A stretch of 54,287 bases of DNA, filler included, from Jimgerdemannia flammicorona (taxonomy: Eukaryota): NCBI GenBank assembly GCA_003990765.1. It is 2 parts of 2 records of this genome, joined end to end, with 100 filler letters (N's around TTAATTAATTAA, not from the genome) between each part and the next. Parts side by side here need not be neighbours in the genome. Positions count along the whole stretch, not along the records: positions 27,201 to 54,287 come from RBNJ01000663.1; 1 more part is not named here. One strand, 5' to 3'. The position numbers and the translations under genes are program-made. Shown here in pieces: positions 22,050 through 47,783 of the stretch; position 1 is the first letter of the stretch, and each line of letters starts with the position of its first letter. The notes under the pieces were generated by a model. The model worked only from the letters and a program-made list of their open reading frames with translations, was not told where the DNA came from and searched no databases.

Positions 22050-22450
22050 AGAGAGTTCTTAGACTTCTATAATCTTGAGTTGACTGGCTTTTTCCAGGAT
22101 CATTTGTGTAACTCAGTCTCCTTCTTTAACTGTATAGTCTTGATCCTTCTGGTTGACAAGTAAGACTTGAACTTGTTCTCAAAAGTCTGGATCAATGACA
22201 CCAGTACCTACATCTAAATAATATTTGATACTGAGTCCTGATCATAGTGCAATTCTAGCATAATGTCCTTTAGGGCATTGGACTACAATTCCAGTAGGCA
22301 CCAGAGTGTGGCCCTTGGCTGGAATAGTGACTTGTTTGACTGAGTATAGGTCAAGACCAATGACTCCTCCTATTTGATATTGAGGGACCTGGGCCTTTAA
22401 ATGAAGCTTCTTGATCTTGAGCTCAAGTTGACTGATGGTGGGATTGACAG
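22050..22450 (-). pseudogene. dUTPase domain of chromovirus, between Gag and protease
   Basis: LKIKKLHLKAQVPQY..GLDLYS..LVPTGIVVQCPKGHYARIAL*SGLS..VGTGVIDPDF..VQVLLVN..VKEGD*VTQMILEK gives dUTPase motifs 1-4. Confidence 0.85.
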
Positions 22451-23491
22451 ATATGTCCTTGGATAGCACAGTGACTGGTCTTGAGGTTCACTAGTCTTCT
22501 TAGAACATTTGGTTACAATGTGTCCTGTTTAATGACAGAAGAAATAGGCTCCAGATTTCTTCAGATACATAGTTCTTTTCTTCAGAGGTGAGCTTGGTAT
22601 TCTTTTTGTTCATAGTGTCTAAGTCTATTAGTACCAGACCAACTGTCCTTGGTTGGTTTCTGTAGCAGTTCTTGATGTGGTTCTTCTTATAGTATTCTAG
22701 CTCAAAGCAGTTGCCAAAGGTAATAATATCAAATCTATCAGTAATTCTCATAGATTCATCAAGAGTTTTGGGCTCTTCTAGCTCAATATTGACCCATGTA
22801 TTTCCCTTCAGACCTCAGATATAGTGGTCTATCTTTTCATCCTCAGATACTACTGGTAGCTCAAGTAGAATTGACAAGAATTATATATTATAGCTTTATA
22901 TAGACTTAAGTTGCTTGATGTTCACTAGCTTGTCTCTGGCTAGCTTAGTAGCATTAGTAGGCTTGAACTACTTGTGAAGGGCTCTCTTGAAAGCTTCCCA
23001 ATCTCTGATTTGTATATATGAGTATACAGATATAATCATGATATAATTTATCACCAGATGGCTATATTTCCTTAGAGGAGTATGGTGGCAAATTGGACTT
23101 GCATGTTATCTTTCATTCTTATGAGCTCAAAGTATTGATCCAACTGGAAGGTCTATGTATCTGTAGATAGTCCTCCTCAATAGCTGTTGAAGATATCTAG
23201 CTTGAGTGACTTGAAACTGATTGATACTATGGCAGAATGTGATATTTCTATAGTTTGTATTTTCTGGTGTTCTAGTTGTGCTTGAAGTTCTTAAATTTGA
23301 TAGACCATAGCATTGATTATATCTTCTATATTGAGCTGTTATCCTCCTGCTTCTTCTGTAGCAGAAGGGTCTGGCTGATAGACTGACTCTTTGTAACTTA
23401 TTTCAGGTTCATGTGACTAGTTGTGACTGGTTTCTAAATTCATATAAGGTTTCTTAATAAGGTAAGATATAATGATACTACTACTACTAAG

Positions 23492-23956
23492 TGTAACAGT
23501 TTTAGTTTCTTTAAGAGGAAGTGGCTAAATCTGGAAGTTCTGATTAGCCTAAAGTAGCTTGAAGAAATACTTAAAGGTTCAAGTATTCTTGAAGGATTTC
23601 TGGAAGAAAAATATTTTAAGCTTTATTCAAGTAGAGAACAAGAATATTTATATATGATCTAAAAGAAAGATCTGGAAGGATCTTAGAAAGAAAGAGAAAT
23701 ACCAAGAAATAGATTTTCAGCAAAGCTGACTAATACTATTCTACAATGTTCTGAAAGGTTTCATAACTAGCTAAGATAGAATACTTGGTGCCAAGAAAAG
23801 ACAAGAATGTTCTGATAATGTCTGGGTGCCAAGAGAAGGTTTCTAACCAAGTAAAAGATTTCGGAATATAGTAGAATGTTCAAGAAATAACAAGAAAAGA
23901 CTAACTAAAAGATGTAAAAATATACTAAGACTAAATATGACTGTGAAATTATTATT
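23492..23956 (-). repeat. 5' LTR of chromovirus
   Basis: Begins tgtaac on the + strand and matches 16361-16825. Confidence 0.92.
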
Positions 23957-24520
23957 TAATAATATAATATCTAATTAAGCTCAAGCAATACCCTTTATAA
24001 TCTATTATATCAAACTTCTTAGGAAATATGAAGTCAAACTCAAAGATGTATATTCTGATCAGGAGAGAATAATTAAGTTTGAGCTTTTCAGATACATGAT
24101 TGTTATTAACATATAGTTAAATAAAAAGAGATAAGAAGATACCCTCAAGAAGATATCTAAATATATGAGTTTTGACTTAGAAGTGATGATTATGAAATGC
24201 AGTAAGATATGTATTAAATTACTACTATATATTTACCTCTTTTTTATTTTATCTAATTATCTTTTACATATCTATAGATCATAGTTTGACTGAGTGATAT
24301 GAGAAGATAGATCCTTGAAACCATTAAATCTAATATTCTCTCTAAATTTACTTCTATTCTTTCAAATATTTTTAACCTCAACAAGAATGTTGAGATAGTA
24401 ACTCAATATACCAGTATATAATCTTATACTATTCTATCAGATTTACATCATTCATTAGTAATATGAGAAATATGCAATCTATGCAACTTCAATAAAATTG
24501 TCCCTCTCTTTATAATATTA

Positions 24521-26116
24521 TATAGTGGTCGCTGAGTCCTTCAAATATATCAGATTCTCTCCAAGGTATATCTCTTAGACTAACTACAAGTTTGTTATAA
24601 GCAAGTTCTTATTGGAGTATCTTCCCAAGGTCTTATAGTCCTCAAACTTCTTATCTTTAAACTGTCTTGTTATCTCTTAAATTGCTTGCATAGAATTGAG
24701 GATAAGTGAACTTGACTGACTTTATTTCAAAAGAAATAAGAGAGGTATTTATATAAAATATATTTCAATGTTTGCTAAGTTATAAAGCTAAATATAAATT
24801 TCAATAATCAAATAAAATACTGAAATACAGAAAACTATAGTTATAAGTATAAGTTTAAGTATTTATATAAATAGTTATATAAGTTCAGGATGCCAGTAAA
24901 ATTTCAGTGATATAGGAAAAGGATATCAGAAGAATTTCTGAGTTATACAAGATCAGAATGCCAGAAGAATAACAGTTATATAGAAAAGGATGCTGGTAGA
25001 ATCCAGTGTTACTAAGAACTTAGAGCAAAAAGTTCAGAACTATGAGAGCTTCATCTTTGTCACTCTTATCAAAATCAGAGGTCAGAAATAGGATGTCTTT
25101 GAAAGAGATGAGATCTATGAACATTTTGTCTGTCTCATTATATATATCATACATTTCATATATTTCATATATATCATGTGAGATAATATTATTACTGATG
25201 ATATTATTACATTCAGTAGTGATAGGGGCTCTCTAATCTATGACATTCTCTTCTATAAAATAAGAAACAAATGTGAAGTCTTAGGGAGGTCTAATCTGGA
25301 TACTGAGGTCTTAGAATGCTGAGATCAATCCTTGCAGAAACTGATCAGAATTGTTCTCAAGAATAGGATTCCAGAACTCTTCTATCTCATCACTATTGAG
25401 AGTGATAGTAGACTGGACTTCTGTAACTACCATAGCTTCTAGTATATTAGTATAGTGGACTGATAGCTTCTTGAAGTCTGAGATTCTAGTATACTCTAAG
25501 TTGGAGATTGACTATAGTGTATGTCTAAAGATCTGATAAATCTTCTTGGCTATCCTTATTTCACATATATCTATAAGGATGGTATCTTGTATTTCTTGGT
25601 AACTAGTCTAAGGAAATTTCCAGCAGAGGAGGTTTTCTATTTCATACTTCTACATATCTAGAGACATTTGGTAGCAATGATGATCTTTATTTTCATTTCA
25701 TAGTAGTAGAGGATACATATAATAATGGAGGTCACCAGTACTCAAGTTGATACTAGGAGTTCTTGTATAGGTATTTATAGCTCTTCTGATATCTTGGAAC
25801 ATTCTTTTCTAAACTGAGGAGCCTTGGTGGTTTCTGAACCTTAAGGTTTGATGAGCAGCAGATATTTGTTTGTAGTAAGTCTTTAGAACTATTTCTGTAA
25901 GCTTTATTTAGGCTGCTGCTACTGTGGTTTCTTAATCCTTCTTTTATATTCCTTGAGATGTCTGTCTTGGGTCACAATGACTCACAGTTGATCATTATTG
26001 CTCATTTTATAGCCTGGATGAGTTATGCTATATGATTTTCTTGTGTTTCAATCTAGTGGCTTATAAGAAAAGGCTATCTCCTGCACTGATATCATTATTC
26101 TAAGGTCACTATTACA
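24521..26116 (-). repeat. LTR-B, 3' copy, containing a degenerate ORF at about 25030-26005
   Basis: Colinear with 35722-37287, ends attaca next to the PPT. Confidence 0.88.
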
Positions 26117-27007
26117 TCTTTCTCCTAAATAAGAATCTTCTTAAACATTCTTATTCATTGGTCCAGTTCTGAAAAATTTGCTGATTCCATAACCTCTGAT
26201 AGAGAGTCAAAAAGTAGTATTTATGGACTAGAATCTTCCCTATATATTTTGGTATGATAGTGAAGAGTCACTCTCTTTATAGTATAGAGTAAGGACCTGA
26301 TTCTGATCTTGACCAATCAGTTGATGGTTCAAACTCCTCTGGCTTTGAAAGTCTCATAGATGAGTAGTTGCTAGTACTATATCTCTTAAAGAATAGTCCA
26401 GACAGATTGCCTACTGGTTATGAGATATGCTGTTATAATTCATAAACTAGAACCTTATGAGTAGTTATCATATTTTGCTTCTCTTATATAGATTCATAGT
26501 ACTTCTTAAGTCTGTTCCTATATACCATAATAGGCAGTATAGTCTCTGAGAGCTTTCTAAGCCAGAAGGTAGTTTTCTTGATATCTTACACATAGAAGGG
26601 TCCTTCCCATTTGGGCTCCAGTTTTTGCAACCATGAGGCTTCTACCATATTTTGATATAGTAGGACCTTTTCTCTGATTTGGATGGGTTCTAGGGTCTTG
26701 TGATTCTTTTCTGCATTCTTTCTTATCAGTATTTGTAACTTGATGATATAATCTTCAGCCTTCTTCCTGATTTGGTATACTCTCTGGATTTCTGAGTCAA
26801 TCAGTCTCTATATTAAATCTAGATTTGTAGCTAAGGTTCTATCAGAATCTTCTTTTCTGAAAAGTAGTTCTCTTGGAGTAAAGTATGTACTCTGTAACCA
26901 TATATCTCATAGAATAGAGAGGGCAGTTGGGAGGTAGTTATCCCAATTGTCATATGTGTCTGAGATCTTTGCTAGGATGTTTTTGAAGGTCTTATTGGTT
27001 CTCTCTA

Positions 27008-27008
<1 letters not shown>

Positions 27009-27100
<92 letters not shown>
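27009..27100 (-). repeat. Poly(T) run, probable poly(A) tail of a minus-strand LINE, running into the gap
   Basis: About 92 T interrupting the Gypsy integrase. The LINEs beyond the gap have the matching orientation. Confidence 0.6.
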
Positions 27101-27200
27101 NNNNNNNNNNNNNNNNNNNNNNNNNNNNNNNNNNNNNNNNNNNNTTAATTAATTAANNNNNNNNNNNNNNNNNNNNNNNNNNNNNNNNNNNNNNNNNNNN
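27101..27200. other. Assembly gap with artificial TTAATTAATTAA six-frame-stop spacer
   Basis: N-run / ttaattaattaa / N-run totalling 100 nt. Confidence 0.95.
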
Positions 27201-29225
27201 TACAAATAGCCAGTGTCCAGCCAGCCCAACCCAAATAGCCAATGCCCAGCCTAACGTAATCCACTCTTCCCCTACCCCTCCTATCAATCGATCCCTCAGG
27301 TCCTCCCACCTCCCCCGTACATCATCCCCCCTACGCCTTACCCCCAACTGCCTTCCTTACCTCATCAATCTCATAACCCTCCTCCTTCAGGAAGATTGCA
27401 AGAATCTCCACCTTCAGTGCCTCCACCACTCCATCTCCTTGCAGAATTTACACCCAATACTCCTCAGGCATTACATGGAGGTCCACTTCTCCCAATGCCT
27501 CAGCTGTGAGGTTATCTATCACTTTGCTTATCCACAGCAGGTTCCCCACCTCCTTCCCTCCCAGAGTCCCTGGCTGCCCCAACATCATGGTATCTGCTCC
27601 TGCACTGGCAGCCTCATCCCACTCCTCCTCCAAGATATCCACTAGCTCATCTTCACCAACTGCCACCACCTGGCCCCCTTTCACCACATCTGGGACTCCA
27701 AAGTGAACTTGCTGGGCTCTCTGCATCAGTACATCCTCTGCTACCCCTCTCTTCCCAATTGGGCCCTTCCTGATAAGCAGGGGGGTGGGTGCCATCCAAC
27801 TCCTACTCCTAAACCTCGAATGTACCATCAGCATAAGAATCCTTACCCAATATCTTCCCAGCCCCTCTCTTGTTTGCCTCTACCTCCTTTCCTCCTTTAC
27901 CAGTCCAGACACTGGCTTCGATGCCTCCAGCCTCCACAGCCCCATCTAACTTCTTCTTTGCCCCTCCTGTCATATTTGCCAAAAGCTCCCTCTGTTTCTT
28001 TTGCCCCTGGGCCTGCTCTCACTATCTCTTGTCTATGCAGATATGCTTCCCCTCCACAATCTCCAAGTGTATTGACTCGACATATTCTTTCCAGACCTTT
28101 GCCCTCTGCTCAACAGCCCCACTCATCTCTTCCAAAGCCTCCAGTAGATCCTCCTCCTCCTCCTCACTCTCTTTCAACCTCAACACTCGACAGCTAAATA
28201 CCCCCCACATCATCACTACTGGCCAGTCACTCATCTTCCCTGTAGCCTCCTTCCCTGCTAATTGAATCCTGACATCCACATCCCCAGTCCTTATGGCAGT
28301 CTCCTCCCAAATCTGGAAACCAATATCCATGACATTGCCATACTCAGCTATCACCTCCTCAACCCTCCTCCTCATCTCAACTGCTGTCACCATAGGTACT
28401 CCCTTCACCAACAGCTGCACCACCCTGGGGTCTCATCTCAGGCAATACACCATAGGGACCACTATCTCCCCAACTACCACTCTAGTCCTCAGAGTCTCAT
28501 CCAGCATACCCACCTCCTCAAAACCCACCTCAACCCCCTCTAGCCCCTTCAGAAACTTCACTGAGGCTGCTCCAGCCACCTGCTTCGAGATGAGCCCCAA
28601 TACCATCCTCACCATCAGAGCTAAGCCCCAGAAGTACAAGGTGGCCATAAACTCTGAGATGGATTTCTTGAGTAATGGTGCTACTGCCAGCCCCATCACA
28701 CCATTGGCCAGGTCCCCCTTCCTCTTTGGGCCCATCTGTCCAGCCCCTACATCAATAGTCATATCTGGATTTTTTTCTAGATTCTCCATCATGCCACCAT
28801 CAGTAATCTTGCCACTACTACTAGCAGCTACTCCACTTCCTCCACTTCCCACCAGTGAAGGCCCAGCTCCCCCAGCATTTCCAATCTTCTGCTTCCCCTT
28901 CCCACCTGTCTGTCCACTACAGGCTCCCATCAGCCAACCCCCAGTCCTCAGCATATCTACAAAGCTCCTTCCCTGCTGCCCTCCAGTCCCCCCATCAGTG
29001 CCTCCTCCACTGCCCAAGCTGCCCTGCCCACTTGAGCCACCGAAAGACCCCATCCCCAGCCTATACCCTCTTCTGACATATTGCTAGTCGAAGGCCCCAG
29101 GTTCACCCAACCTAGTATGTATGTCAGCTTACTTGCTGATTGACATTGCCTTAATATCTTTCTCCAATAAATGATTTGAAAGTATGTTGTAAAAGTGTGT
29201 GTAATGTGAATTGTAGCAGAGAAAG
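27201..29225 (-). mobile_element. L1-type LINE copy A: 5' end plus ORF1, truncated by the gap
   Basis: ORF1 from about 29146 is clearly paralogous to 31424-33400 (KFLKGLEGVEVGFEEVG, KGVPMV..VEMR.RVEEV.AEY, EEEEDLLEALE.MSGAVE). Shares the 5' motif tacaattcacatta. Confidence 0.8.
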
Positions 29226-32200
29226 ATATTCAACTATCTCCCTAAGCATCTCAACATCTGCTACCAAGCTAAGTCCAACTACCATATCATCAGCAAAGGC
29301 CCCCACCTTCCACACCACACTATATACAGCAAGCCATACCACCTTCTGTTGTATCCTATCCATCAAAGGTTCCAATGAAAGAACATAGAGGATAGGAGAC
29401 AGTGGATCTCCCTGAGGAACTCCTCTTCCCAAGGAGAATACCAGACTCTAGTGACCATTACACACTAGTACTACCCACTGCTCTCTAACAGATTTAACAT
29501 AGAAACTCAAAATTATAAGGGAACACCAATGCTATCCAGTACCTTGTCCAGCCACACCCTCCAAACATGGTCATAGGCCTTCTCCTGGTCCAGAAAAACC
29601 AATCTTTCATCCAATCCACAAGCCCATGCCCCCTCAATAATGCTATGAACCCAGGCTGTCCCATCTCTGATGAGCCAACCTCTAACAATGCCCTGCTGCT
29701 CATCACCCAGCATCTGTTGGGCAACCTTCTATAGCCTTGCAACAATCACCTTGGTCACTATCTTCCTGTCCATATCCAGAAGTATGATCAGTCTCCAGTT
29801 CTTTCAGTTCCCTCTCCTCTCCTTATCTTTGTACAACAAGATCACTAACCCCAAGTCCTGTTCCCCAACCCACTCCCCATTCAAAGAACATAGTCACAGA
29901 GGGCTGCTATTTCTCCTAGAACTCCAGGAACCTTCGCCCTCTTCTTTCTAAAGTTCCAAGGTAGCCCATCCTCTCCTGGTGCCATCCCAAGCTTAGTTGC
30001 TACAATGACTCTCTAAATCTCCTCCTCTTGGACTGAAAGGATCAAGTCACCAAGGCCCTCCACTCAGAGTGGTTTCCAATTCTCCAGCATATTTCCAATT
30101 GCCTCCTCATCTGCACCCCCTTCTTCCTCACACTACAGACCCCTCCACCTCTCCTTCAGTATCCCCAAGATCTGTTGCATGCCATGCACCATCTCCCCCT
30201 CTGTATCCAGAACCCCATCTCATTGATGCCACACCCTCCTGGCCTGGAGGAGCCATGACAAGTACTTTGTAGACCTCTCCTTCTCCTCAAGACCCTACTA
30301 TCTCAGCCTAGCTACCATTCCTTTCACATGCATCTCCTCCTCCTCTCTCAACACCTGTTGCAGCTCCATCACCTCCAATTTTGCTCATACCAACCTCCAA
30401 TTATCTACCTTGCCAGAATTTAACAAATCTGCCCATCATCTGCAATCTAACCAACTGATTGGAAGCTCTTCCTTCTCTACTTCCCTGTCTCCCTGCCAGC
30501 CCCTCCTCAGTAAATCAGTGCAGTCTCTTTCAACTTTAACCATCAGATACCCACTGGCAAACTCTCATGTATCCAGCCAGCAATCTTCACTTGGATGTCC
30601 TCCATCCATAGATCCTACAAAACCTTCTCAGCCAGCAGAGAGGAGTTAAGGTACCAATGTCTGAGTCCATCTCCACTCCCCCCAAACTGCCCCTGCCCCA
30701 AGAGATCCCAATGGTCAGACTACAGGCACCACTCAATATCCAGAGACTTCCAAACATCCATTCCCCAGCATTCAGCTGTCAGGATCCAGTCAATTCTTGT
30801 ACCCAGTCTATTCACTCAGTATGTGTAAATCCTTCTGTCTCTCCACCCTGTCCTCCTCATATCCCCCAGTGAACTAAGATTCTCCACCTCCTCTCACATG
30901 TCCAAGCCACCACTCCTACCACCAGCACTCCTTCCTCCATCAGTTCTATCCATCTGAATATCCCACACCATATTAAAGTCTCTACTCAGAATATTGACCC
31001 CCTACTCCAGTAGAGAGACCTCTTCCAAAAGACCCTTAATCCAAGCAATCCACTACCCTCTAACTGCTGGGCAGTAGCAAGATCCAACCTTCACTGGTAC
31101 CCATCCAGGTCTATGTCACTCTCTCCATACCAAATGATCTCCCCAGCTTCTTATTCCACCTAAGTCTCCTTTACCACCTCACACTAAAATTACCACTTTG
31201 CCAATCTAAGCTGCAGATCCTCTCCATTCTCTGGTCCATGTCTCCTGATTCACATCATTCTCACATTGGACATCCTGTAGTAGAAAGAGATCAGCCTCCA
31301 ATCTCTTAAGCTAATTAAAAATATTCTTATGCTATCCAGAATCCTGTAGACTATTCACATTCAGAGAAAACATGTTGGTTATACTGTTCATTAAGAATAA
31401 TATTTAGAAGTTCTGCTCATCCTCTATAAGTTCATATTCATCTCTTCCCTTGCCAAGTCCAGAATGTATTTGTTATCTACTTCCTTCTCTGCAGCCATCT
31501 TTGCCTCCAATCTCATCAGAAGTTCAGCCATCTCTCCATCCTCCTTTTCCTCAAACTCCTCCCATACTCCAGGCATACCTTCTGCCAAAGCTACAACCCA
31601 TAATGCTCTTTCCAACAGTATGCAGCCCTCTCATCAACCACAATTGCTAGCTCAGCCTCTCTTTCCTTATCAATCTCATACCCCTCCTCCTCTAGGAAAA
31701 TTGCAAGCACCTCAGTCTTCAGCACCTCCACTACACCATCACCATACAAAATCCTCACCCAGTGCTCCTCACTCATCACTCTCAAGTTCACCTCCCCCAA
31801 CTCTTCCACTGCCAAGTTGTTCATCATCTTGCTTATCCACAGAAGATTCCCCACCTCCTTTTCACCTAGAGATACTGGCCTTCCTGCACTCAGCATTGTC
31901 ATGTCCACTCTAGCACTCACAGACTCATCCCACTCCTCCTCCATAATATCCACCAGCTCATCCTCACCAACTGCCACCAACTGACCCCCTTTCTCTATTG
32001 GAAACTCTAAAATGAACTTGCTGGGTGCCATGTATTGGTACATCCTCCACCCCCCAACCCCTCACCACAGGACCCCTCCTGATAAGAGAGGGGGGAGTAC
32101 CATCTAAGTCCTGTTCCTAGACTTCAAAGGTACCATCTACATATGGGTCACTGGGTGGTAACTTCTCAGCACTCTTCTGACCCTCATCATCATCCCCCCT

Positions 32201-33532
32201 CCCCTTCCCAGCCCAGATACTCTCCTCAGCACCCCCAGCCCCCTCCACATCACTATTATTCTTCTTTGCCCTACCCTCTATACTCACCAACAGCTCTCTC
32301 TGCCTCTTACACCCTTGTGTCCTCTCTCACTACCTCCTATCAGTGTGGATATGCTTTCTATCTACAATCTCCAAATACATTGACTCCACATACTTCTTCC
32401 ATGCCTTTGCTCTCCTCTCAACAGCTCCACTCATCTTCTCCAGAGCCTCTAAGAGATCCTCCTCCTCCTTCTCACTCCCTTTCACCCTTGCCACCTGGCA
32501 GATGAAAGCCCTCCAAAGCATCATCAATGGCCAGTCACATCTTTCCAGTGACCTCCTTCTCTGCCAGTCAAATCCTGACATCAATATCTCTAGTTCTAAT
32601 GGTGGTCCCCTCCCAAATCTGAAAACCAATATCTACCACATTGCTGTACTCTGCCATTACCTCCTCAACTCTCTTTCTCATCTCAACCACCATTACCATA
32701 GGCACCCCCTTCACTATTAACTGAACCACTCTGGGGTCCCACCTCAGACAGTACACTATAGGGACCACCACTTCCTCTACAGCCACTCCAGTCTTCAGAG
32801 CCTCTTCTAGTGGACCCACCTCCTCAAAGCCCACCTCAACCCCCTCAAGACCCTTCAGAAACTTCATTGAGGTGGCCTTAGCCACCTGCTTTGAGATAAT
32901 CCCCAAGACCATCCTTGCTGTCACTGCTAAGCCCTAGAAGTACAAGGTCATAACAAACTCTGAAATTAACTTCTTGAGTAATAGTGCCACTACTAGCCCC
33001 ATTACACCATCTGCCAGGTCCTTCTTCCCCTTTGGAAACCCCTGTTTCACCCTGCCATCAGCTGTCACATCTCTTTTTTTTCCTGATTCTCCATTACACT
33101 CCCATCAACAGTTACTCTCCCAGCTACAGAGTCTCCAGCACCTATACTTACATCTCCTGCCTGAGTACTGCTCCCCCTCCCAACACCAGTACTTGTCTTG
33201 CCCTTCCCCTCAGCTGCACCAGCCCTAGAGCCCACTGGCCATCTATACTCCTTCACTTTATCTGCAAAGCTAGGGGGGCCAGGCCTTCCCCTATTTCCAC
33301 CTGACACCAGTCCTCCTCCAGAGCTCTCTCCACTCTTCAACTGTCCAAAGGCCCCCATCCCTAGACCATAACCTCTCCCCACATGCTGTCAGCCAAATAC
33401 CCCAGGTCTACCTGACCCAGTATGCCTGTCAGAACTGTTGCTCAATGATATTTTTATAGTATCTTTTCTCCAAGTTGTGTTGAAAACCATTGCTTGAAGT
33501 TGGTATAATGTGAATTGTATAAGAGAAAAGTG
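29226..33532 (-). mobile_element. L1/Tx1-type LINE copy B: ORF1 plus APE endonuclease and RT, degenerate
   Basis: Endonuclease RIDWIL..SDH about 30710-30800. RT APGEDGLP, WRLIILL..RKIVTK, LDQEKAYDHV, GVPQGDPLSPILYVLSLEPL, AFADD at 29990-29280. 5' junction with Gypsy B at 33532/33533. Confidence 0.9.
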
Positions 33533-35721
33533 TTATTCCTCCTCATCATCACTGTCAGCTTAAAGCTCTGGGGGCTGGTCATCTTCTTTGGCTTTCCTTT
33601 TTGCTTCAGTGACTTCTTGCTCATACTTCTGTTGGCAGATTTTCCTGACTTCACTGATACAGGACCAGCAGTTATTCAGGTGTTCAGAGTGATACATCCT
33701 AGTATCATGAGGGCATCTTTCTTGAGGGGCATAGTCATCGATGATCTTATTGTACCACTGCTCATCTGTGAGCTTGGGTGTCTTGTTCTTATTCTTATTC
33801 TTGTTCACCAAGTGCATAAAGACTTCTGTGTCCTCCTCATCTCCTTCCTCCATATCTGGTAGAACTCCTTTGTAGATATTGATAGAGACTCATATCTTTC
33901 ATCCTCTATAGTTGATCTGCATCTTCTGGACATTGAGATCAATGATGGTCTTGGTCTTGTGAAGTCATTGGTTGCCAATGAGGATGTCATAGTTGGTGGT
34001 GCTTGTAACAATCATATCTACTGGGATGGTAGCTCCTTCTATCTTGATGGAGACTTCTCAGATTTTGCCAAGGGGGGTAGCTTATATATCATCTGCTGTA
34101 ACATAGACCATCTTGGTGGACTCTTCAATGTCCCAGCTTAGGCAGTCAATTGCCTTTTTGCTCATGAGGCATCCTCCAGTACTGGTATCCATGATGGCAT
34201 CAAAGATACAATCTTCGATCTGACATAGAGTATAGGCTGATGTCTTGTGCTGGTCTTCAGATTCTTCATCTGAGTCTTCTTGTGCATTGTGAGCTTTTAC
34301 AATCTTATACTCTTGATTCTTGGTAGTAGTTGCAAGTCCTACTCTCAACTGCTGTCTGAAGGCAGAGACTTTGGCTAGCTGTCCGAAAGTAGTATTGACC
34401 TTCTGTTTCTTGAGGTCCTTGTAGACATCATACTGGTGGATCTTGGTCTTGCACAGCTTCTGTTCCTTCTTGCTTTCACTTTCTCCTGAGACTAGAGTAG
34501 TGCCTTCAATGATTTGGTAGACAGCTTCATCTAACTCTATGTCTTGATCAATCTCCTCAGATTGGGTCTTGCTTTGAATAGTGATAGCTGGGGTCTTCTT
34601 TGGTCTTCCAACTGGCTTACTGTTACTCTTCTTGTCATAGGGCTTGGACTGGATTCTGGTACCTTCAGTAGCAGAGTAGAATTTGAGCTCCTCATAGTAT
34701 TCATCATCATCAGTATCACCAATCTCCTCAATGACTACTGCATTGGTTTGTTCTCTAGTTCTGCTAGCATTACTTGGTTGGGCTTTGCATCTTGTTTCAG
34801 TCATACAACTCTTTGCATAGAGGCCTTCTTCTCCACATCTGAAGTATATAATATTGTGTTCTTCTATAGCAGTTGCAAATCTCTGTACTGGTCTCCTATT
34901 GATACTTCAGACTTCTCTAACAACATTACCAAGGTATGCAGTCATCTCAGCAAACTACTTGGTGTGTTCCTCCACTAGGTCAGCTTTGGCTATCTTGGGG
35001 GTAGGTGGGGATGGTTGTCTGTTTACAACTGTGGTGAGTATGATACTAGTTGGCTTTGATGGCTCCATTTTGATGCCAGTTATTTTCTCTATTGAGTATT
35101 TAGTGGGATATCTGGCAGTCTAATATCTCTGTGCAAAGACCACTTTCTGATTAAGAGTCAGTGCAGCTGGGTAGACTGGATTGTTAGAGCACTTCCTTTG
35201 AGGAAGATTGAATTTGCTATTTGTTTCTTGAGGTAGTCATCATAGCCAGCTAAGATAATCTGGTGACAGACTTAGATATAGAATGAGTTGGGATCTTTGC
35301 TGAGTCTCTGGCAGATAGTATTGAGTTGATTCTTGAGAGCTTACTTGATATCTTCAGTATAATATGTTGTTCTGAGAAAGGCCTTTATGTTGGCAAGTTT
35401 GGCTATACCATTATTAGCAATAGTGGCTGTATTGAACTTGTCTCTGGCAGGTCCTCTGAGGCTGACAGGTAGAAGAGCCAATTGCGCATCCACACCAAGA
35501 GCTCATATGTTGGCAAATTATTCAAAGTCTTCAATGAAGGTCAGGATTGACTCTTTAGTAGTATATCTATAGAATGTGGGGGGGGTATATTTCTATCTTA
35601 TCTTGAATTCTTGCAGGGGTGACTCTTGTAGTCAGAGTAGTTGTTGTGGTGATTATTTGTTTTTCAGCTTAAAAGTGAGGGATTTGTCTTGAATCACCAG
35701 CCAATGGGCACCAAGTTGTTA

Positions 35722-37287
35722 TGTAGTAGTTACTGAGTCCTTCAAATATATCAGATTCTCTTTAAGGTATATCTCTTAGACTAACTCAAGTTTGTTATAA
35801 GTAAGTTCTTATTGGAGTGCCTTTCTAAGGTCTTATAGTCCTCAAACTTCTTATCTTTAAACTGTCTTGTTATCTCTTTAGATTGCTTATAAGGAATTGT
35901 GTATATTATACTGAGTAGACTGACTTTATTTTAGAGAAAATAAGAGGGGTCTTTATACAAAATATAATTCAATGGTTGTTAAGATATAAAGCTAAATATA
36001 AATTCTAATAACTAAAATAAAATGCCAGGATATGGAAAACTGTTAAGTTCCAGTGTTGGTACTAATGGTTGTACAGGTTCAGGATGCTGGTGTAATTTCA
36101 GTGATATAGGAAAATAGTGCTGGAATAATTCTGAGTCACATCAGAATGCTAGTGGAGGAACAGCTGTTACATAGGAAAAGAGTGCAGTATAACTAAAGGA
36201 CTTTTAGGGCAGAATGTTCAGGACCATAGGAGCTTCATCCTTATCAGAGGTCAGGATATCTTTGAAGAAGATGAGGTCTGTGAATGTTTTGTCCATCTTA
36301 TTGTTATCACATAGGTCACATATTTCATGTATGTCATGTGGGATGATATTATTGCTGATAACATTATCACATTCAGTGGCAGCAGGAACAAGGAGATCTG
36401 GAGCTCTCCAGTCTATGAGGTTCTCTTCCTTGAAATAGGAGATAAATATGGAGTCTTGGGGAGGTCTAATCTGGATACTTGGGTCTTGGAATACTGAGAT
36501 CAATCCTTGCAGGAATTGGTCTGAGTTGTCCTGGATGATGGGATGCCAGAAGTCTTCTACTTCATCACTATTGAGGGTAATAGTGGACTGGGCTTCTGTG
36601 GCCACTCTGACTTTTAGTGCATTGCTACAGTAGACTGACAGGTCTCTGAAGTCTGAGACTCTAATATACTCTAAGTTGGAGATCAACTATGATGTATGTC
36701 TGAAGATCTGATAGATCTTCTTAGCTGTCCTTGTTTTACATATATCCATGAGAGTGGCATCTTGTAACTCTTGAGGGATGGTCTGTTGGAACTTCCAGCA
36801 GAGGAGGTTTTCTATTTCATACTTCTACCACATTTGGAGATATTTGGTAGCAATGGTGATCCTTGTTTCCATTTTATAGCAGTAGAGGATAAAGTGATAA
36901 GGATCTGCAGTACTCAGGTTGATACTAGGAGTCTCTCTTATGTGGGTCCTCATAGCTCTTCTGATGTCTTGGAATATTCTTTCTTTAACTGAGGGGCCTT
37001 GGTGATTCTTTGACCTTGAGGTTTGGTGAGCAGCAGACATTTCATTTTTAGTAAGTCTTTGAGCTATTTTGGGATTGGTGGGTCTTGTTGAGTTGCTGCT
37101 GCTACAGTTCCTTGATCCTTCTTTTATATTCCTCAAGATACATACCTATACTGTGGTCATAATGACTCACAGTTAGTCATAATTGCTCATCTTATATGCT
37201 ATATGATCTTCTTGTACTCTGATCTGGTGGCTTTCAAGGAAAGGCTGTCTTCTGTGCTGATGTCATTATTCTGGGGTCACTGTTACA
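35722..37287 (-). repeat. LTR-B, 5' copy
   Basis: tgtag..ttaca termini, adjacent PBS, TATA GTATAAAGACCCC at about 35946-35958 on the minus strand. Confidence 0.88.
36204..37190 (-). pseudogene. LTR-B U3-embedded ORF, about 329 codons with a few in-frame stops
   Basis: ORFs 36825-37136 and 36204-36686 are one frame joined through TAG stops: ..ERIFQDIRRAM..INLSTADPYHFILYCYKM..LQMW*KYEIENLLC..RTAKKIYQIFRHTS*LISNLEYIRVSDFRDLS.. The start codon is uncertain. Confidence 0.8.
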
Positions 37288-39110
37288 ATATATAAGCTAA
37301 ATCTCTTAGTAATTTTAGAAAGAATTTATCTAGTATTTTACATATATATCTCAACTTCAACTGTATACTCTAAACACCTTTGAAGGAAGAACTGTATCAC
37401 TCTCAGATCTAATTATTATCAATCAGTAATCAGAATAAAAAGTTAATTATATTTTAGATTATAAAGACTAATAATTTAAATAAGCTGTCAAGTCTACCTA
37501 TTACAATCTAGTAAAATAGAAAAGATATCCTAAATATAATACCATCTGGAGAAAAGAGAATAATCTGATATAAATATCTAGTATAATGAAAATTCTAATA
37601 GAATTTTCAAAGAGCAGTCATATTACTGACAAGTTAAGTATAATATAAATAGTCAACAATAATTAACAAATCAAAAGCAAGATTATAATAGCCATTCTTA
37701 TAGCTATTGAATATCAATAGACCTCTACTGAACCACCTTCTGTCAATATATAAATTTCTAAATGCTCTGATCTGAATAAAGCCCAATAATATCTTAGAAG
37801 AATTCAATACTTTTAAACCTTCTACTACTAATAGAAACTGAAAGAATACTATAAAATAAGACAGATCAATTATCAACAAGCTATACTTGATAAGGCCAAA
37901 TAGTTATTCTGTCATTTTATTGATAACTATACCTATATTATCACTAAGAGACTATATTTTCTTTTCTATATACAACTCTAAATCCTTGATCATCTCTGTA
38001 AAATATCTTCTAAAAATATTACCCATTTGACTAATGAATATTAAAGAGATATTACTTTTTAAGTAGTCCAGTATACAGTTCTTTAGTTTAATAAATATCT
38101 AGAAATTTAATATAGAATTAATGAGTAGATTCTGATAAAAAAGATAAAACTATAATATTTCATTATATAATAACAACTTAATAAAAATTCTAATAGAAAT
38201 ACTAATAAAAATTACAATAGAATCTTCTATAGAAATTCTAATATAGTTGTCATATATACTATATAGTATAACTATATATAAATATATCCAGTATACTATA
38301 TTTAGCTAGAGCTCCAAATCTGTATATTGTGGCGTTGGTTATGTATAATGAACTTCGTCTGCACGGCTCAATATGTGCCACTTGGTGAAGCGCGCGATGG
38401 ATGTGAGTGCGTTCGCGACGGTTACGGGTCGATGGTCACGTGATCGGGTCGTTCGAAACGTGTGATAATAGCGGGACTTCGATTGTTCAATGATGGTGGC
38501 TCAGGACGTCGATGGTGGCTCGATTGTTTAGTGGATAAGGGCGGCGATTATGCTGGCTAAGTTTCCTGGCGGCAAACTCGGCGACGACGGTCTTGATGGT
38601 CTTGCTCTTTATGCGGTCAATTAAAGCGGTCGACGGTCTTGACTTTAAGCGGTTCGTGGCGCAGTAGGTCGGAAATCGGAGAAGCGGAGGTTGACGGCTC
38701 GCTCGTCCGTCTTGGTTAACTTGAAAGGTTCCTGGCGGTCGTTCGAGTCTTTGGCAGTTGTTCTTGCTAGCTGGCGGGTCTTGTACTGGTATCCTTGAGT
38801 TCCTTGGCTTTTCGGGGTCTTGAATCTCGAATGGCGGCGGTCGGGTAACGTTTTCTTTCTTTCCGTGGCAAGAGAAAATTCTTTTACTCAAACTTCCGAG
38901 CGATCCATTGCTCTAGGTTGTTATCTTGTTCTCAGAATTTATCCGGTCTCTTGGAGGCAGTGTGTTTTCTCTGTAAAACTATCTGACTGAGGTTTATTCA
39001 CTCTAAGAATATGGGTTATTTATACAAGTTTGCTAGCTATGGGCGCGGCTAAGGTATACTACGTTGTGGCAAACTTTGCTATGCTATTGGCTTGCACGAT
39101 GTGAAGGGCT

Positions 39111-39510
39111 GACTTGCTGACAAGACGCTGAAAACGGTTGAGCTGGATAGCAATGCTGGATACGGTTGTGCTGGGTGGCAATGCTGAAAACGGACTTGCT
39201 GACTTGCTGACACGGACGGATATGGATGCGACGATTGTTGCCAGAAGCGGTTGTGGAGGGTAGCAATGCTGAAAACGGACTTGCTGACAAAATGCTGAAA
39301 ACGGTTGCACTGGATAGCAACGCTGGATATGGTTGTGCTGGGTGGCAACGCTGAAAACGGACTTGCTGACTTGCTGACACGGACGGATATGGATGCGATG
39401 ATTGTTGCCAGAAGCGGTTGTGGAGGGTAGCAACGCTGAAAACGGACTTGCTGACAAAATGCTGAAAATGGTGGTACTGGGTAGTAACGCTGGATTCGGA
39501 CTTGCTGACT
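39111..39510. repeat. 167-bp tandem repeat (about 2.3 copies) in LTR-C, candidate U3 enhancer
   Basis: gacttgctgacaa recurs at 39111, 39278 and 39445, built from gctgaaaacgg subrepeats. Lies between the ORF stop and the TATA box. Confidence 0.85.
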
Positions 39511-39697
39511 AAAAGCATGGTTCTCACAGCTGATAGGCGGTACTCTAGAGGGAATAGTACCATTCGTCCGCGGTGGGCAAATCTTGCTGGGTTGCGATTT
39601 CTTCTTCATCATATCTCTCCTCAAAAGGGGGAAGCGCCAGCCAAGAGGTGAGGGGGTAGAAAAGTGGCCAGTCATCTTCAACAACATTCTCCAACCC

Positions 39698-40531
39698 TTA
39701 AACAGCTTGAATGCGGACAGAGGACTGGTAGACTCTCTGTTGCTCCTCTTCTTCTTCTGAAGACTCGTCAGTTTCAGTGTCAGAGGGGGTTTCTTCAGGG
39801 GCAGGGCCTTGGAGTTCTTGGGGCTCCTCTTTAAAGACAGGGACCTCTTGGGCTTCTTCTTGATTCGGTTCCCAAATGATGAGATGTGAATTGTGGCTGA
39901 CAGGGTGGTGGGTGGTTGGGGTAGCTCCAATGGGTGCTTCTATAGTAATGGGCGGTCCTTCAAATATCTCCATAAGACTCATTAGGTGACCTTGATGGTT
40001 GTCTCGGAGTGGGGTGGTGTGGAAACCTGGCTGAGTAGGTTCAGTTTGTTGGCTTCCTACAGCGACCCGGTTGCTACCAGTAGAGTTGGCTACTTCTGAT
40101 TCTATCCAGTCTGCATCTTCAGTTGAGAGACAGGCAAGACTGCCGGCTGTTACTCCTTGCAAGTGTGCTATGGCCCAGGGAATATGGCGGAAGATTTGGT
40201 AGACACGGAGGGCTCTCTTGATTAGCTGGCTGGTGGTTAACATTTCGGCAATGAGGTCTTCTTGGTCGCCTTCTTGAGTCTTATTGCAAAGGCAGTGTCC
40301 AATTTCATAGTCATGCCAGAGGGTCATTCGTTCGGTAGTGTCTTTGAGCTGTTGGGTCATTATATACTGGTAGTTGATGAAGTGTCCAAGGTCTTCGGTG
40401 TAGAAGTTCAAGTGTTCAGAAGTATCTGGGTGCCAGATGGCCTTCTTGATAGCTTCAAAGATCAGAGTCTTTGGGCTGGGCAAAGGGGTAGAGCGGCGGG
40501 AGGTCTGGTTGGATTGGCGAATGGGAGGCAT
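39698..40531 (-). CDS. LTR-C U3-embedded ORF, intact, 277 aa from MPPIRQ (frame open from 40732)
   Basis: Uninterrupted intronless ORF: basic N-terminus, helical core LIFEAIKKAI..WHDYEIGHCLC..RALRVYQIFRHIPWAIAHLQGVT..LS, acidic tail. Homologous to the LTR-A and LTR-B ORFs. Confidence 0.8.
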   Translation of the reverse strand: MPPIRQSNQTSRRSTPLPSPKTLIFEAIKKAIWHPDTSEHLNFYTEDLGHFINYQYIMTQQLKDTTERMTLWHDYEIGHCLCNKTQEGDQEDLIAEMLTTSQLIKRALRVYQIFRHIPWAIAHLQGVTAGSLACLSTEDADWIESEVANSTGSNRVAVGSQQTEPTQPGFHTTPLRDNHQGHLMSLMEIFEGPPITIEAPIGATPTTHHPVSHNSHLIIWEPNQEEAQEVPVFKEEPQELQGPAPEETPSDTETDESSEEEEEQQRVYQSSVRIQAV

Positions 40532-41732
40532 TGTGTGGTGGGTATTTGGTTCTTTGGTGCTGATCCCTGAGGCAGAGTATGGTTCCTTAAATAACATGGT
40601 CTTTATTTTGGCTCGGATCATCTTGTCTTCTTTTGGTGAAATCCTTGATAGATTGGACTGGTCACCAGTTATCGCACCATAATGCCGTCTGATCTTGTGG
40701 TCACAGGGTACTCCAAATTTGGACAGGGTCAATTGTAGATGTCACAATATATAAATACTCTCTATACTGAATATTATAACCTCAGCTCTGCTTTTCTCTC
40801 TTATAAATAAAGAAGTATTCTTATCAAAAAAAACCCTCAGATCCAACTTGTGAATAATTCTAAGTCTCATCAGCTTAGAATATAAGTATAGTACCTCTAC
40901 TCTATATAAGAATCTGAAAGTGATACTTTGGTAATGGATACTTAGAACTTAGTATTTCCTTATAGAACTTGGAATTTAGAGCTGATACTTATCTTATTAT
41001 CTATAATATATTAATTCTATCAGTATATAGTTTTATTATGCTATTGTTCAATTTATAAATAAGTTTATTATTAATTTTATTAATTTTATTTTATTATTTC
41101 TTATCTAATTTATTACTATTTAGCTTTTAATAATATTTAGCATTTATTATTATCTATTTTATTATTACGCAGTTATTATTCAGTAGAATTTATTATTATT
41201 ATATAGAATATAATGATAATTAACTATAGAACAATTAATATATTTAGATTGAGTTTAATAAAATAATACTAAAAAATTATTTATTAATAAGAGTTCTCTA
41301 GAATAGCTTTATATATATTCAGATCTCTCCCAATATATATCAGAAATTCTCCTACAATTTATATAATAAAAATACCATCTCTGGATATATGAGTAAATTG
41401 TAAATTATGCTGGAGATATGTGTGATATTCTCTCAGAGATTCTCAGGTTTTTCTCTGGAAAATATATGTAACATATCAAGAATTTTATATCAAATTTCCC
41501 AGTATATTCTGGATGACATCTCGAAGAATGTTGGGTACTCCTGAAGCCCGGGTTATGAAAATAGTAGAGATTTTCTGGTACTTCCAGATATCATTATAGA
41601 CCACATCCCAATTTCGTGATGTATACGCCAAAGGAATATTTATATTTCACTCAGTTAGGTGACGAAAATTCTACGCTATACAAATCTCTAAAATACATGT
41701 CAATCAATAACATGTCAATCAGCTACGGGAAA

Positions 41733-43243
41733 TTAAATTTGAATACGATCTTTTATCCGGTACTTTGCTTGATTCCACAAAGTCACGGCAGGGTACACGT
41801 TGTCCGGAAGGTCGGTCCACGCAATCCCTTGGTTAACCCCATTGACAGAAAGGGCGCAAGTGTGGTTGCTTTTATCCAGATGGAGCGTGACTACATCGCC
41901 ATTGTGAAGATTGACGCCATATTTACGGGTCACTCCTGACCCCGTTACCTTCCGATAGTTCTGGTAACAATGAAATGCCCAAGCTGATGGCTTGTTCCAC
42001 AAGACGGAATCGAAGCCAGAGAACTCTTCTTCCACTAAACCGATCTCGTTGATGGCACATCCATCAAGTAAACCGACAGACTCGACCTTTATATCCCATT
42101 CGTACAGCCCTTCTGGAGTCATCGTCCCGGGGACGGAGATCCTTGCTGCGTGTTTCGTGCTCGCTGACGTTCCGACGGAAAGTCCCACGACCTTGCCATC
42201 TTCTGAGACGATAACGCGGGAACCGATCTTCGACCGATCCCATTGGATATTTTGACTTTCGTGATTTTGACTTTTACGATACCCAGAGGGGTGCCCCGTT
42301 GAGCACACAGTGTTCTTGCATGCATGGTGGGCAAACGACATGTAGTGGGGAGACGTCTCCATAAACCCGTCGACCGCCTCCGTGACGCTCTTCAGGCGAT
42401 GCGGGCACACAAGGGTGAGGTCCAAATGCCTCATCATGTTTAGCAGCAACGTGTTATTTCCCAGCCGAATTTTGCCCTCGCACCCCGGAACCATGCTGGC
42501 GACAAGACTCAGGATATCGTGACGTTCTGCAATGTTGGGTCCCGGTTCGTCGGCGTGCGCCCAGACCCAGTCAACGATGCACAGTAGCAGATCGTGTTCG
42601 GGAGTAAGGAAGGTAGTCGGGAAAGGTGCCGTGAAGAGCAGCTCGAGAGCCTCTTCGGAGAGATCCGTTAACTCTCCTATGGCGAGCCTGCGAGTATAGA
42701 AGGGCTTGAGAAGAACGGTGTAGAGGTCCCTGTTGGACTCACTCCAAGGGATGGAGGAGGCGGCCTCGTTGAGGAGGAATGACGAGACGCCAAAGTCGGA
42801 AACGTTTTGTGCGCACTCCAACACCATTGCCTTGAGCTTTGGGAGGAGAAGGAAGCTTGCTGCGCGGTAGATGTCCACAGCGATGGCGACGTCGGTGTCC
42901 TCGATCGATTCAGTGTAGATGTAGCCGAGAACGATGGTAAGCTCTGCAGAGTTGATGTCGTGGAGGACGACTCGCTGGGAGATGCTCTCTTGCATGTTTC
43001 CGTAGAGCATTGCCTTGAATACGGGACACCTTAGGGACCGCACGGCATCAATTGGTATACTATTGGCATGTAAAATGTTGAAACACAATAATGAAGCGAT
43101 GGAACACACCTTGCGGCCAGGACAGCACGGCATACCCCAAGCTCGACACCATCGGCGCAGACGATGGTTACGTCGTGGTAGGCAGTGTCGGTCCATATCT
43201 CGGCGATGTCGTCCTTGAGGCTAAGACCACCGTTGGGCTGCAT
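41733..43243 (-). CDS. BTB/POZ plus SPRY-domain protein, paralogue 1 (476 aa; intron 43109-43030)
   Basis: YHDVTIVCADG..RAVLAAR|CPVFKAMLYGNMQES..LGYIYT (BTB). GLYEWDIKVES..IGL..GDVVTLHLDKSNHTCALSVNGVNQGIAWTDLPDNVYPAVTL (SPRY). Confidence 0.9.
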
Positions 43244-46050: not shown

Positions 46051-46272
46051 CAAAAAAAAAAAAAAAAAAAAAAAAAAATCGCTACTATAGCCAACAAGAA
46101 CAAAAATGGCATATAGTTTGGCATGTAGATTTCGGTATATATATGCTAATGGAATAGTTATTTTTCACTCAATTAGGTGTCGAAAATTCTACGCTATACA
46201 AATCCCTAGAATACATGTCAATTGATCAAAATGTCAATCAGCTACGAAAAGGAGAGGCTGAACGGAGGGAAA

Positions 46273-47783
46273 TTAAACTTGAATACGATCTATAATCCGG
46301 TACTTTGCTTGATTCCACAAAGTCACGGCAGGGTACACGTTGTCCGGAAGGTCGGTCCACGCAATCCCTTGGTTAACCCCATTGACAGAAAGGGCGCAAG
46401 TGTGGTTGCTTTTATCCAGATGGAGAGTCACTACGTCGCCATTGTGAAGATTGACGCCATAGTTACAAGTTACTCCTGACCCCGTTACCTTCCGATAGCT
46501 CTGGTAACAATGGAATGCCCACGCCGATGGCTTGTTCCACAAGGCGGAATCGAAACCAGAAAATTCCTCGTCCACTAAACCGATCTGGCTTACGGCACAC
46601 CCGTCAAGTAAACCGACAGACTCGACCACTATATCCCATTCGTACAGCCCTTCCCGAGTCGTCGTCTCGGGGACGGAGATCCTTGCTACGTGTTTCGTGC
46701 TCGTCGGCGTCCCGACAGAAAGTTCCACGACCTTGCCGTCATCTGAGACGATAATGCGAGAACCGATTTTCGACCGATCCCATTGGATATTTTGACTTCC
46801 GCGATTTTGACTTTTTCGAAACCCAGAGGGGTGCCCAGTTGGGCACACGGTGTTCTTGCATGCGTGGTGGGCAAATGACATGTAGTGGGGAGACGTCTCC
46901 GTGAACCCATTGACCGCCTCCGTGACGCTCTTCAGGCGATGCGGGCACACAAGGGTGAGGTCCAAATGCCTCATCATGTTTAGCAGCAATGTGTTATTTC
47001 CCAGCCGAATTTTACCTTCGCACCCCGGAGCCATGCTAGCGACAAGACGTAGGATATCGTGACGTTCCGTAACATTTGGTCTCGGTTCTTCCGCATGTGC
47101 CCAGACCCAGTCAACGATGCACAGTAGCAGATCGTGTTCGGGAGTAAGGAAGGTAGTCGCGAAAGGTGTCGTGAAGATCAGCTGGAGAGCCTCTTCGGAG
47201 AGATCCGTTAACTCTCCTATGGCGAGCCTGCGAGTACAGAAGGGCTTGAGAAGAACGGTGTAGAGGTCCTTGCTGGCCTCACTCCAAGGGATGGAGGAGG
47301 CGGCCTCGTTGAGGAGGAATGACGAGACGCCAAAGTCGGAAACGTTTTGTGCGCGCTCCAACACCAATGCCATAAGCTTTGGGAGGAGAAGGAAGCTCGC
47401 TGCGCGGTAGATGTCCACCGCGATGGCGACGTCGGTGTCCTCGATCGATTCAGTGTAGATGTAGCCGAGAATGATGGTAAGCTCTGCAGACTTGATGTCG
47501 TGGAGGACGACTCGCTGGGAGATGCTCTCTTGCATGTTTCCGTAGAGCATTGCCTTGAATACGGGACACCTTAGGGACCGCACGGCATCAATTGGTATTC
47601 TATTAGTGTGTAAAATGTTGAAACACAATACTGAAACGATGGAGCACACCTTGCGGCCAGGACAGCACGGCATACCCCAAGCTCGACGCCATCGGCGCAG
47701 ACGATGGTTACGTCGTGGTAGGCTGTGTCGGTCCATATCTCGGCGATGTCGTCCTTGAGGCTAAGACCACAGTTGGATTGCAT
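46273..47783 (-). CDS. BTB/POZ plus SPRY-domain protein, paralogue 2 (intron 47649-47570)
   Basis: Colinear with paralogue 1 at a constant 4540-bp offset. Intact frame. Confidence 0.9.

Follow-up and report, generated by a model that had tools for sequence, protein, structure and literature searches.

The window considered here, a 54,287-nucleotide stretch of DNA from Jimgerdemannia flammicorona (assembly GCA_003990765.1; positions 27,201 to 54,287 come from RBNJ01000663.1), looks eukaryotic and fungal, and between its genes is an AT-rich island of transposable element (TE) remains that extends roughly from 13000 to 41700. Within that island, on the minus strand, lies a 2419-bp repeat unit, termed here LTR-C, with a protein-coding frame inside it (Table 1). 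It is probably the solo long terminal repeat (LTR) of an LTR retrotransposon, with an accessory open reading frame (ORF) embedded in its U3 region, the ORF being likely silent at this location and the whole having escaped C-to-T hypermutation. The parent retrotransposon was probably Ty3/gypsy-like. The usual picture of an LTR retrotransposon is of gag-pol flanked by non-coding LTRs. As a solo LTR, LTR-C is ordinary; the unusual feature is the conserved sense ORF in its U3.

On the plus strand LTR-C starts with TGTGGCGT at 38328 and finishes with ATGTCACA at 40746, so that in sense orientation it reads TGTGAC...GCCACA and has the short TG...CA inverted repeat. Directly outside both ends is ATAT, the putative target-site duplication (TSD); the empirical chance of two 4-mers from the 300-bp flanks matching is 0.013, and the identity does not extend beyond 4 bp since the flanking 5-mers differ. 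Its 110 CpGs correspond to an observed/expected ratio (o/e) of 0.79, as against 0.00–0.07 in the other TE segments (the sister repeats R1a and R1b, the Gypsy element at 16349–23954, and 27202–33500, 33501–35716 and 26117–27009) and 0.81–0.98 in gene regions. They are unevenly spread, with an o/e of 0.37 in the ORF and of 1.35 in 38328–39110. The flanks at 37288–38327 and 40747–41700 have a GC content of 0.23–0.25 and contain 0 and 7 CpGs respectively. A preliminary description of this DNA had remarked on the inverted TGTG termini, the ATAT duplication, the retained CpGs and an ORF that lies upstream of the LTR's own TATA and, unlike every other TE frame of the island, lacks stops, and each of these observations holds: the other frames examined have from 2 to 20 stops, those of Gypsy having 20 in 449 codons (gag-dUTPase-protease), 9 in 357 (reverse transcriptase (RT)-RNaseH) and 9 in 340 (integrase), with 20 in 739 for gag-protease of R1. 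No terminal direct repeats were found within LTR-C, and a nucleotide search of the window yielded no second copy of it, only self and tandem-repeat matches (BLAST with purines and pyrimidines collapsed gave noise only), from which it follows that it is a single repeat unit rather than a two-LTR element. Neither a primer-binding site (PBS), nor a polypurine tract (PPT), nor an internal region of the same age was found beside it, and six-frame Pfam searches gave no match in either flank or inside 38328–40746. With no internal repeats, no partner in the window and flanks that differ from it in composition and mutation state, a solo LTR would be the simplest reading.

In the order of the minus strand LTR-C comprises a 215-nt leader, the 277-codon ORF, which consequently begins 216 nt into the LTR, a tandem array, a CCAAT/TATA block, AATAAA, and ~660 nt of CpG-rich sequence designated R/U5. 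As the TATA box, TATAAATA, is downstream of the ORF, the latter would be within U3, and the AATAAA right after the TATA block would mark the U3/R junction. The array is made of shorter CCGTTTTCAGCRTTGC-type sub-repeats, and a 16-nt motif has six matches, all within 39150–39445, where 0.07 were expected. The CCAAT, TATA and AATAAA of LTR-C are putative promoter and poly(A) elements in a register common to the R1 repeats: a gap-free block, TATAAA(T/G), 26–27 nt, AATAAA, then TCAGTC, is present in LTR-C, R1b and R1a.

Table 1. Coordinates of LTR-C, of the sister repeat family R1 and of associated features in the window
Feature	Position	Strand	Details
LTR-C, probable solo LTR, 2419 bp	38328..40746	minus (5' end 40746)	TGTG..CACA ends, ATAT TSD, layout common with R1
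TSD ATAT, left copy	38324..38327		directly outside LTR-C end
TSD ATAT, right copy	40747..40750		directly outside LTR-C end
Putative layout of LTR-C	U3 ~40746-38995, then R/U5 to 38328	minus	
LTR-borne ORF, 277 codons + TAA	39698..40531	minus	ATG 40531-40529, TAA 39700-39698, 0 stops; profile score 439.8, E 2e-133
Lost C-terminal tail, 50 open in-frame codons past TAA	39548..39697	minus	29/31 identical to P0001 residues 284-314
Tandem array in U3, between ORF and TATA	39111..39499	minus	167-bp unit x 2.3; 92% matches, score 673
Core-promoter-like block	38993..39090	minus	CCAAT 39090-39086, TATAAATA 39024-39017, AATAAA 38998-38993, then CCTCAGTCAG
R1b, 5' LTR of sister family, 1571 bp	35717..37287	minus	TGTAAC...TAACA, then ACT, then TGGTGCCCATTGG (PBS-like, TGG sequence)
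R1b copy of LTR-borne ORF	36207..37040	minus	278 codons, 2 in-frame stops; starts ~248 nt into LTR
gag (CCHC-knuckle remnant) and retropepsin region downstream of R1b	33937..34906	minus	weak Pfam matches
R1a, 3' LTR of sister family, 1601 bp	24516..26116	minus	polypurine run AGGAGAAAGA before LTR
R1a remnants of LTR-borne ORF, three stop-bounded pieces	25314..25808	minus	profile E 9e-19, 1e-7, 5e-4
Ty3/gypsy-type integrase, C-terminal part	26433..27008	minus	80% identity, 99% coverage to P0011, E 5.5e-71
Ty3/gypsy element	16349-23954	minus	gag, dUTPase, protease, RT, RNaseH, integrase (six-frame Pfam scans, self-comparison)

The frame of the ORF is open from stop to stop from 40741, not from 40732 as first given, and the absence of stops in the ORF itself does not make the copy 'intact', as it had been called. 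An in-frame upstream ATG at 40621 would make the product 307 aa, while the start MPPIR.. is the one common to the homologues P0001, P0003, P0004 and P0006. The nearest of these, P0001 (325 aa, named 'hypothetical protein' in the database), is 81% identical to the LTR-C ORF and has Gln at the position of the LTR-C TAA, past which the frame stays open for 50 more codons, the first 31 of them with 94% identity to the P0001 tail. The TAA therefore appears to be a recent nonsense change that removed ~48 residues and for which CAA to TAA would suffice. That tail may be dispensable: the R1-type protein P0007 ends near the same position. LTR-C and P0001 differ at 54 of 277 aligned positions, and where P0001 has 20 aligned Arg the LTR-C ORF has 11, eight of the nine losses being CGN to CAN or TGN (Arg to Gln, Cys or His). 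Further, there are 14 differing sites between the tandem copies of the array; 12 are transitions, and 8 are CpG/TpG. Judging from the Arg codons and the tandem units together, the LTR-C copy appears to have begun to decay slightly, by the mutational route that its neighbours have taken. Because of the TAA and the Arg losses the better template for functional study would be P0001 rather than, as originally proposed, the LTR-C copy.

Two repeats of a sister family, R1, place the same gene in a retrotransposon context. R1b is followed by a PBS-like site, gag and protease, and R1a is preceded by the end of an integrase and a PPT, so that R1 appears to be a genuine LTR with the ORF inside, R1b being a 5' and R1a a 3' LTR, which bears out the earlier proposal that the gene is LTR-borne. 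The R1b and LTR-C ORFs are 29.6% identical (tblastn E 2e-17) with three collinear profile matches; for the two R1 copies tblastn with the LTR-C ORF gives E 2e-17 and 4e-6, at 26–30% protein identity. Read through its two stops the R1b ORF has 67% identity over 256 aa to the database protein P0007, its intact counterpart, and the lesions are nonsense changes only, with no frameshift. The integrase frame before R1a aligns to residues 244–433 of P0011, a 433-aa protein with Pfam rve (PF00665) and Integrase_H2C2 (PF17921). In the R1 family this integrase C-terminus directly precedes the PPT and 3' LTR; RT and RNaseH were not found. Since pol before R1a stops at ~26435–26433, 317 nt ahead of the LTR, the LTR ORF is not a pol extension. 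An additional ORF of plant type, placed between pol and the 3' LTR, was also considered and rejected: with the pol stop at ~26433 and the LTR start at 26116, the ORF is ~248 nt inside the LTR, and it is in both R1 LTRs. The frame at 26117–27008 had no significant BLASTP match to the integrase of the other element, a phmmer search of the PDB yielded only a foamy-virus integrase at E 0.8, and a tblastx comparison of the two Gypsy bodies was of no use; it was the P0011 match that settled the assignment.

LTR-C and R1 have in common a TGTRAC start, the orientation and offset of the ORF (~216 and ~248 nt), protein similarity over the whole ORF, and the TATA-AATAAA-TCAGTC block; local alignment of their DNA in a transition-tolerant mode gave scores of 30–35, which is the level of shuffled sequence. 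The same TTATATAT run is right before the TGT start (minus sense) in LTR-C (40740–40755) and in R1b (37280–37295), and may represent either a target preference for TA repeats or just AT-rich surroundings.

Is LTR-C an LTR at all? A terminal inverted repeat of only 4–6 bp, a TSD of only 4 bp and the lack of a same-family partner LTR in the window would also suit a DNA-type or non-autonomous element, or a truncated element of which just one end is left. We give this little credence, since the ORF position and orientation and the TATA-AATAAA block are those of R1 with its PBS, PPT, gag-protease and integrase context, the ORF belongs to no Pfam family and six-frame Pfam searching reveals no transposase inside the unit, and the difference of the flanks in composition and mutation state means that nothing of the same age adjoins LTR-C.

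What does the ORF encode? A word-indexed search retrieved three near relatives, and an exhaustive profile search of 1,835,955,588 representatives eight matches (six at E<=1e-10), all 40–342 aa long and none fused to pol. Among them are ORFs of 214–342 aa from three further subfamilies, at 29–31% identity and with conserved motifs. The relatives represent four subfamilies or more: the LTR-C type (P0001–P0003, P0005, P0008 and P0009), P0004 with P0006, P0007, and P0010. The Met-Pro-Pro start and the order of the motifs are common to the subfamilies. Such conservation of the protein, when the DNA around it can no longer be aligned, speaks for selection on the gene. All eight members are without a Pfam family, a PDB sequence-profile search gave no match at E<=10, Foldseek with the AF2 (AlphaFold2) model of the LTR-C protein (predicted local distance difference test, pLDDT, ~52) gave none at E<=0.001, and the Atlas provided no usable neighbour (scores <=0.85, the threshold for a lead being 0.9). 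The model, with a mean pLDDT of 51.9, has helices in residues 20–150 and a disordered tail; residues 226–277 have a pI of 4.05, with 16 Asp plus Glu among 52. The product is thus predicted to be an orphan protein whose N-terminal half is helical and whose tail is disordered and strongly acidic. The low confidence of the model, the absence of a known domain or fold, a low language-model recognition score (1234), and database relatives that are mostly fragments (five of the eight profile matches being <=200 aa) would also suit an open frame that is a relic or by-product of cis-acting U3 sequence and not a functional gene. Such a relic seems very improbable, as the protein similarity has outlasted DNA alignability, the Met-Pro-Pro start and ordered motifs have been kept across subfamilies at ~30% identity, and the R1b copy has suffered nonsense changes with no frameshift.

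Expression of the gene would differ between complete elements and solo LTRs. The two LTRs of one insertion would have recombined, leaving a single LTR between both copies of the 4-bp target duplication. In the complete element the RNA would begin beyond the TATA of the 5' LTR and run into the 3' LTR, where it would end, with the ORF then present only at the 3' end of the element RNA, behind pol and the PPT, and its translation would be from that RNA, from a spliced or subgenomic form, or by re-initiation. The protein would be a trans-acting helper of the element, our best guess being a regulator that acts on the LTR, for instance on the repeat array, and a speculative alternative an antagonist of host defence. 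In the solo copy there would be no LTR promoter upstream of the ORF, unless the leader has its own, and it would most likely be silent, or else depend for its expression on read-through from the BTB-SPRY gene of the same strand, the frame of which ends at 41733, 986 nt upstream of LTR-C.

An own promoter in the leader deserves consideration. Each LTR would then be a self-contained transcription unit with a second promoter in the 215-nt leader and a short ORF-only mRNA, and the solo LTR would express the protein, truncated in this instance. CCAAT-like and TATTTAAG-like strings are present 60–125 nt upstream of the conserved start codon, and the closest database relatives are on very short contigs (1116, 1018 and 633 nt), with the 978-nt ORF of P0001 filling its contig to within 138 nt, as a cDNA might. 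However, comparison of the leaders of LTR-C, R1b and R1a revealed no conserved internal promoter, their alignment stopping ~10 nt in and no TATA-like box being kept in register; the LTR-C leader carries three upstream ATGs; and several of the short database matches look like stop-bounded fragments of mutated genomic copies. We regard a self-sufficient unit of this type as unlikely. If the gene did have a promoter of its own, solo LTRs would still be loci that express the protein.

The contrast between LTR-C and its neighbours is one of mutation. Divergence of the duplicated LTRs is mostly by transitions: the Gypsy pair has 415 identical sites, 57 transitions and 1 transversion, and R1a versus R1b 1235 identical sites, 244 transitions and 49 transversions, with CpA/TpG contexts the commonest and CpG altogether gone. 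TpA/ApT is 0.93–1.0 in the mutated TEs versus 0.65–0.77 in genes and LTR-C, and (CpA+TpG)/(ApC+GpT), at 1.23–1.32, is not lowered, so the process would best be called RIP-like rather than classical RIP (repeat-induced point mutation) or the textbook Neurospora pattern. The LTR-C indices, 0.77 and 1.23, are like those of genes. LTR-C would have been spared through being recent, through having no similar partner, or both, and it is plausible that it is young. The preliminary description saw here a recent insertion collapsed to a solo LTR; the solo LTR stands, while 'recent' draws only on the lack of C-to-T decay, which escape without a partner would also fit, as repeat-targeted mutation requires one.

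In that event LTR-C would be pristine because repeat-targeted C-to-T mutation and silencing never recognized it, rather than through youth. No other nucleotide copy of it is in the window, its nearest relatives there have only 26–30% protein identity, and the few CpG transitions that it does carry, in eight Arg codons and at eight CpG/TpG sites of the tandem units, would fit slow background decay. In Podospora, according to the available text of PMC10787394, solo or fragment LTRs mostly escape RIP. On the other side, the parental element carried a pair of identical, linked LTRs of 2.4 kb that would have been a prime target had a mutation cycle intervened, the TSD is still perfect, and the CpG o/e is up to 1.35 in 38328–39110. 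We lean away from an old but partnerless LTR-C.

Several points weigh against our reading of LTR-C as a solo LTR with a gene in its U3. The TSD is only 4 bp, ATAT, in TA-rich DNA. The window shows no internal region flanked by a copy from the LTR-C family, and the identification as an LTR would lean on the sister family, with its 26–30% protein identity, plus one short DNA block, in which TATA and AATAAA are motif matches only. For R1 itself the evidence for gag and protease appears weak: the Pfam matches behind R1b (Asp_protease E 2.4e-4, RVP_2 1.8e-3, gag-asp_proteas 6.8e-3) all score under the curated cut-offs, the DDI1 retropepsin is at E 0.2, and a search of the R1 gag-protease ORF against longer proteins gave no match. 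R1b and R1a are not demonstrably one element, as their outer flanks have no clean TSD (..ATAT versus TTAT..), and the interval between them contains LINE-like (long interspersed nuclear element) sequence with RT matches, a 4.3-kb partial duplication and an assembly gap. The short contigs of the relatives (633–1116 nt), if transcripts, would suggest an ORF-only mRNA with its own promoter, not silence. Lastly, the Pfam, PDB profile, Foldseek and Atlas searches appear to leave no function assignable.

Among known systems LTR-C agrees with Ty3/gypsy solo LTRs in its TG..CA ends, short TSD, U3-R-U5-like layout with putative TATA and poly(A) signal, and lack of an internal region, and its sister LTR R1 is associated with an integrase (a relative of rve + H2C2 proteins), a PPT and a PBS-like site. 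It differs in being very long, at 2419 bp, with ~40% of it a protein-coding frame (277 codons and the 50-codon tail). Accessory genes in U3, or running into it, are familiar from retroviruses: sag of mouse mammary tumour virus (MMTV), nef of human and simian immunodeficiency viruses (HIV/SIV), and bel/bet of foamy viruses. Shared with these is a sense ORF downstream of pol in the U3 of the 3' LTR, duplicated in both LTRs and upstream of the LTR promoter. In LTR-C the sense ORF is indeed inside the LTR upstream of TATA, and R1b has the same layout. The differences are that the LTR-C protein has no sequence or fold similarity to them (Pfam, PDB profile, and Foldseek on a low-confidence model), that it comes from a fungus-like eukaryote and from an element without env, and that for LTR-C we infer the expression route and function.

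Plant LTR retrotransposons have additional ORFs (aORFs), which in the text available from a review are located mostly between pol and the 3' LTR and are sense or antisense (Vicient & Casacuberta 2020, PMC7264820). There too a conserved extra ORF beyond gag-pol is in most copies of a family, with function unknown, whereas the ORF here starts 216–248 nt inside the LTR itself; wording for an ORF within an LTR does not occur in the available portion of that review. In fungi, brtn is an antisense extra gene of Boty/BcGypsy1 of Botrytis cinerea (Zhao et al. 2011, as cited in PMC8365987). It is an extra gene, of unknown function, of a fungal Ty3/gypsy element, which the parent of LTR-C probably was too, but by the cited title it is antisense, while the LTR-C ORF is sense and LTR-borne, the comparison being by description only. 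Our literature search yielded no account of a gene carried by a fungal LTR, which is weak evidence of absence, as coverage was incomplete and most subscription journals were outside it.

A bolder extension is that there is an undescribed orphan protein family encoded in the U3 of fungal Ty3/gypsy-like LTRs, a counterpart of sag and nef, with every LTR, solo ones included, a dispersed gene copy, and with the product a trans-activator working on the repeat array or an antagonist of genome defence. In its entirety this is a tentative proposal that we would bet against. Were it so, fungi would gain an analogue of the accessory genes encoded in retroviral U3. With a conserved gene inside it, a solo LTR is potentially a gene copy and not only a promoter relic, and LTR-borne ORFs are likely annotated as orphan 'hypothetical proteins' though they are parts of transposons. 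In current databases the family is tiny (8 of 1.84 billion representatives), no fold can be assigned to it, and the question of its function is directly approachable.

The island is flanked by ordinary genes: Paf1, a MaoC-dehydratase-like gene, two BTB-SPRY paralogues and a dUTPase. It is interrupted by the join at 27101–27201, N runs around a TTAATTAATTAA linker that follow a run of 91 T (27010–27201 for the T run and the join together), and because this scaffold or assembly join is inside the island the order and distance of the two sides are not guaranteed. Read on the minus strand, the 91 T appear as a poly(A) tract that immediately precedes the truncated integrase frame. The well-preserved Gypsy element to the left of the join has its own LTRs of 475 bp; that the LTR-borne ORF might lie in these was considered and rejected, since they do not contain it. 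The dUTPase domain of the element (E 4.5e-26) separates gag from protease at 22013–22394. A 9-bp unit (TAGGCAAGA-like) is repeated ~97 times in an array of ~850 bp at 18595–19442, in pol between the RNaseH and integrase matches, and near the protease/RT junction 273 bp at 21295–21567 are palindrome-like, with 76% match to their own reverse complement.

At the left edge of the island 13000–16348 has an intermediate CpG level (44 CpGs, o/e 0.46). A 175-codon open frame at 14863–15387 on the minus strand has no Pfam match; a fourth copy of the LTR-ORF family at 14670–15387 was rejected, with its profile E of 0.6 and pieces out of order judged to be noise. To the right of the join, 27202–33528 is LINE-like on the minus strand, with RVT_1 matches at 29806–29255 in two frames and a partial direct duplication with a period of ~4305 bp (27350–28802 resembling 31655–33107 at 74%). 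Its composition is odd (GC ~0.49, GC skew ~-0.5, CpG o/e 0.04): the CpGs are gone, yet it is not AT-rich like the other old elements.

Beyond LTR-C the two BTB + SPRY ORFs, each of 495 aa and on the minus strand at 41733–43220 and 46273–47760, represent a local gene duplication, which reaches ~118 bp past the stop (41611–41727 resembling 46129–46246 at 86%). A search for an empty site was uninformative, the right flank of LTR-C matching only those 118 bp downstream of the paralogous gene. A second dUTPase ORF (E 1e-21) is on the plus strand at 53254–53946, near the end of the window.

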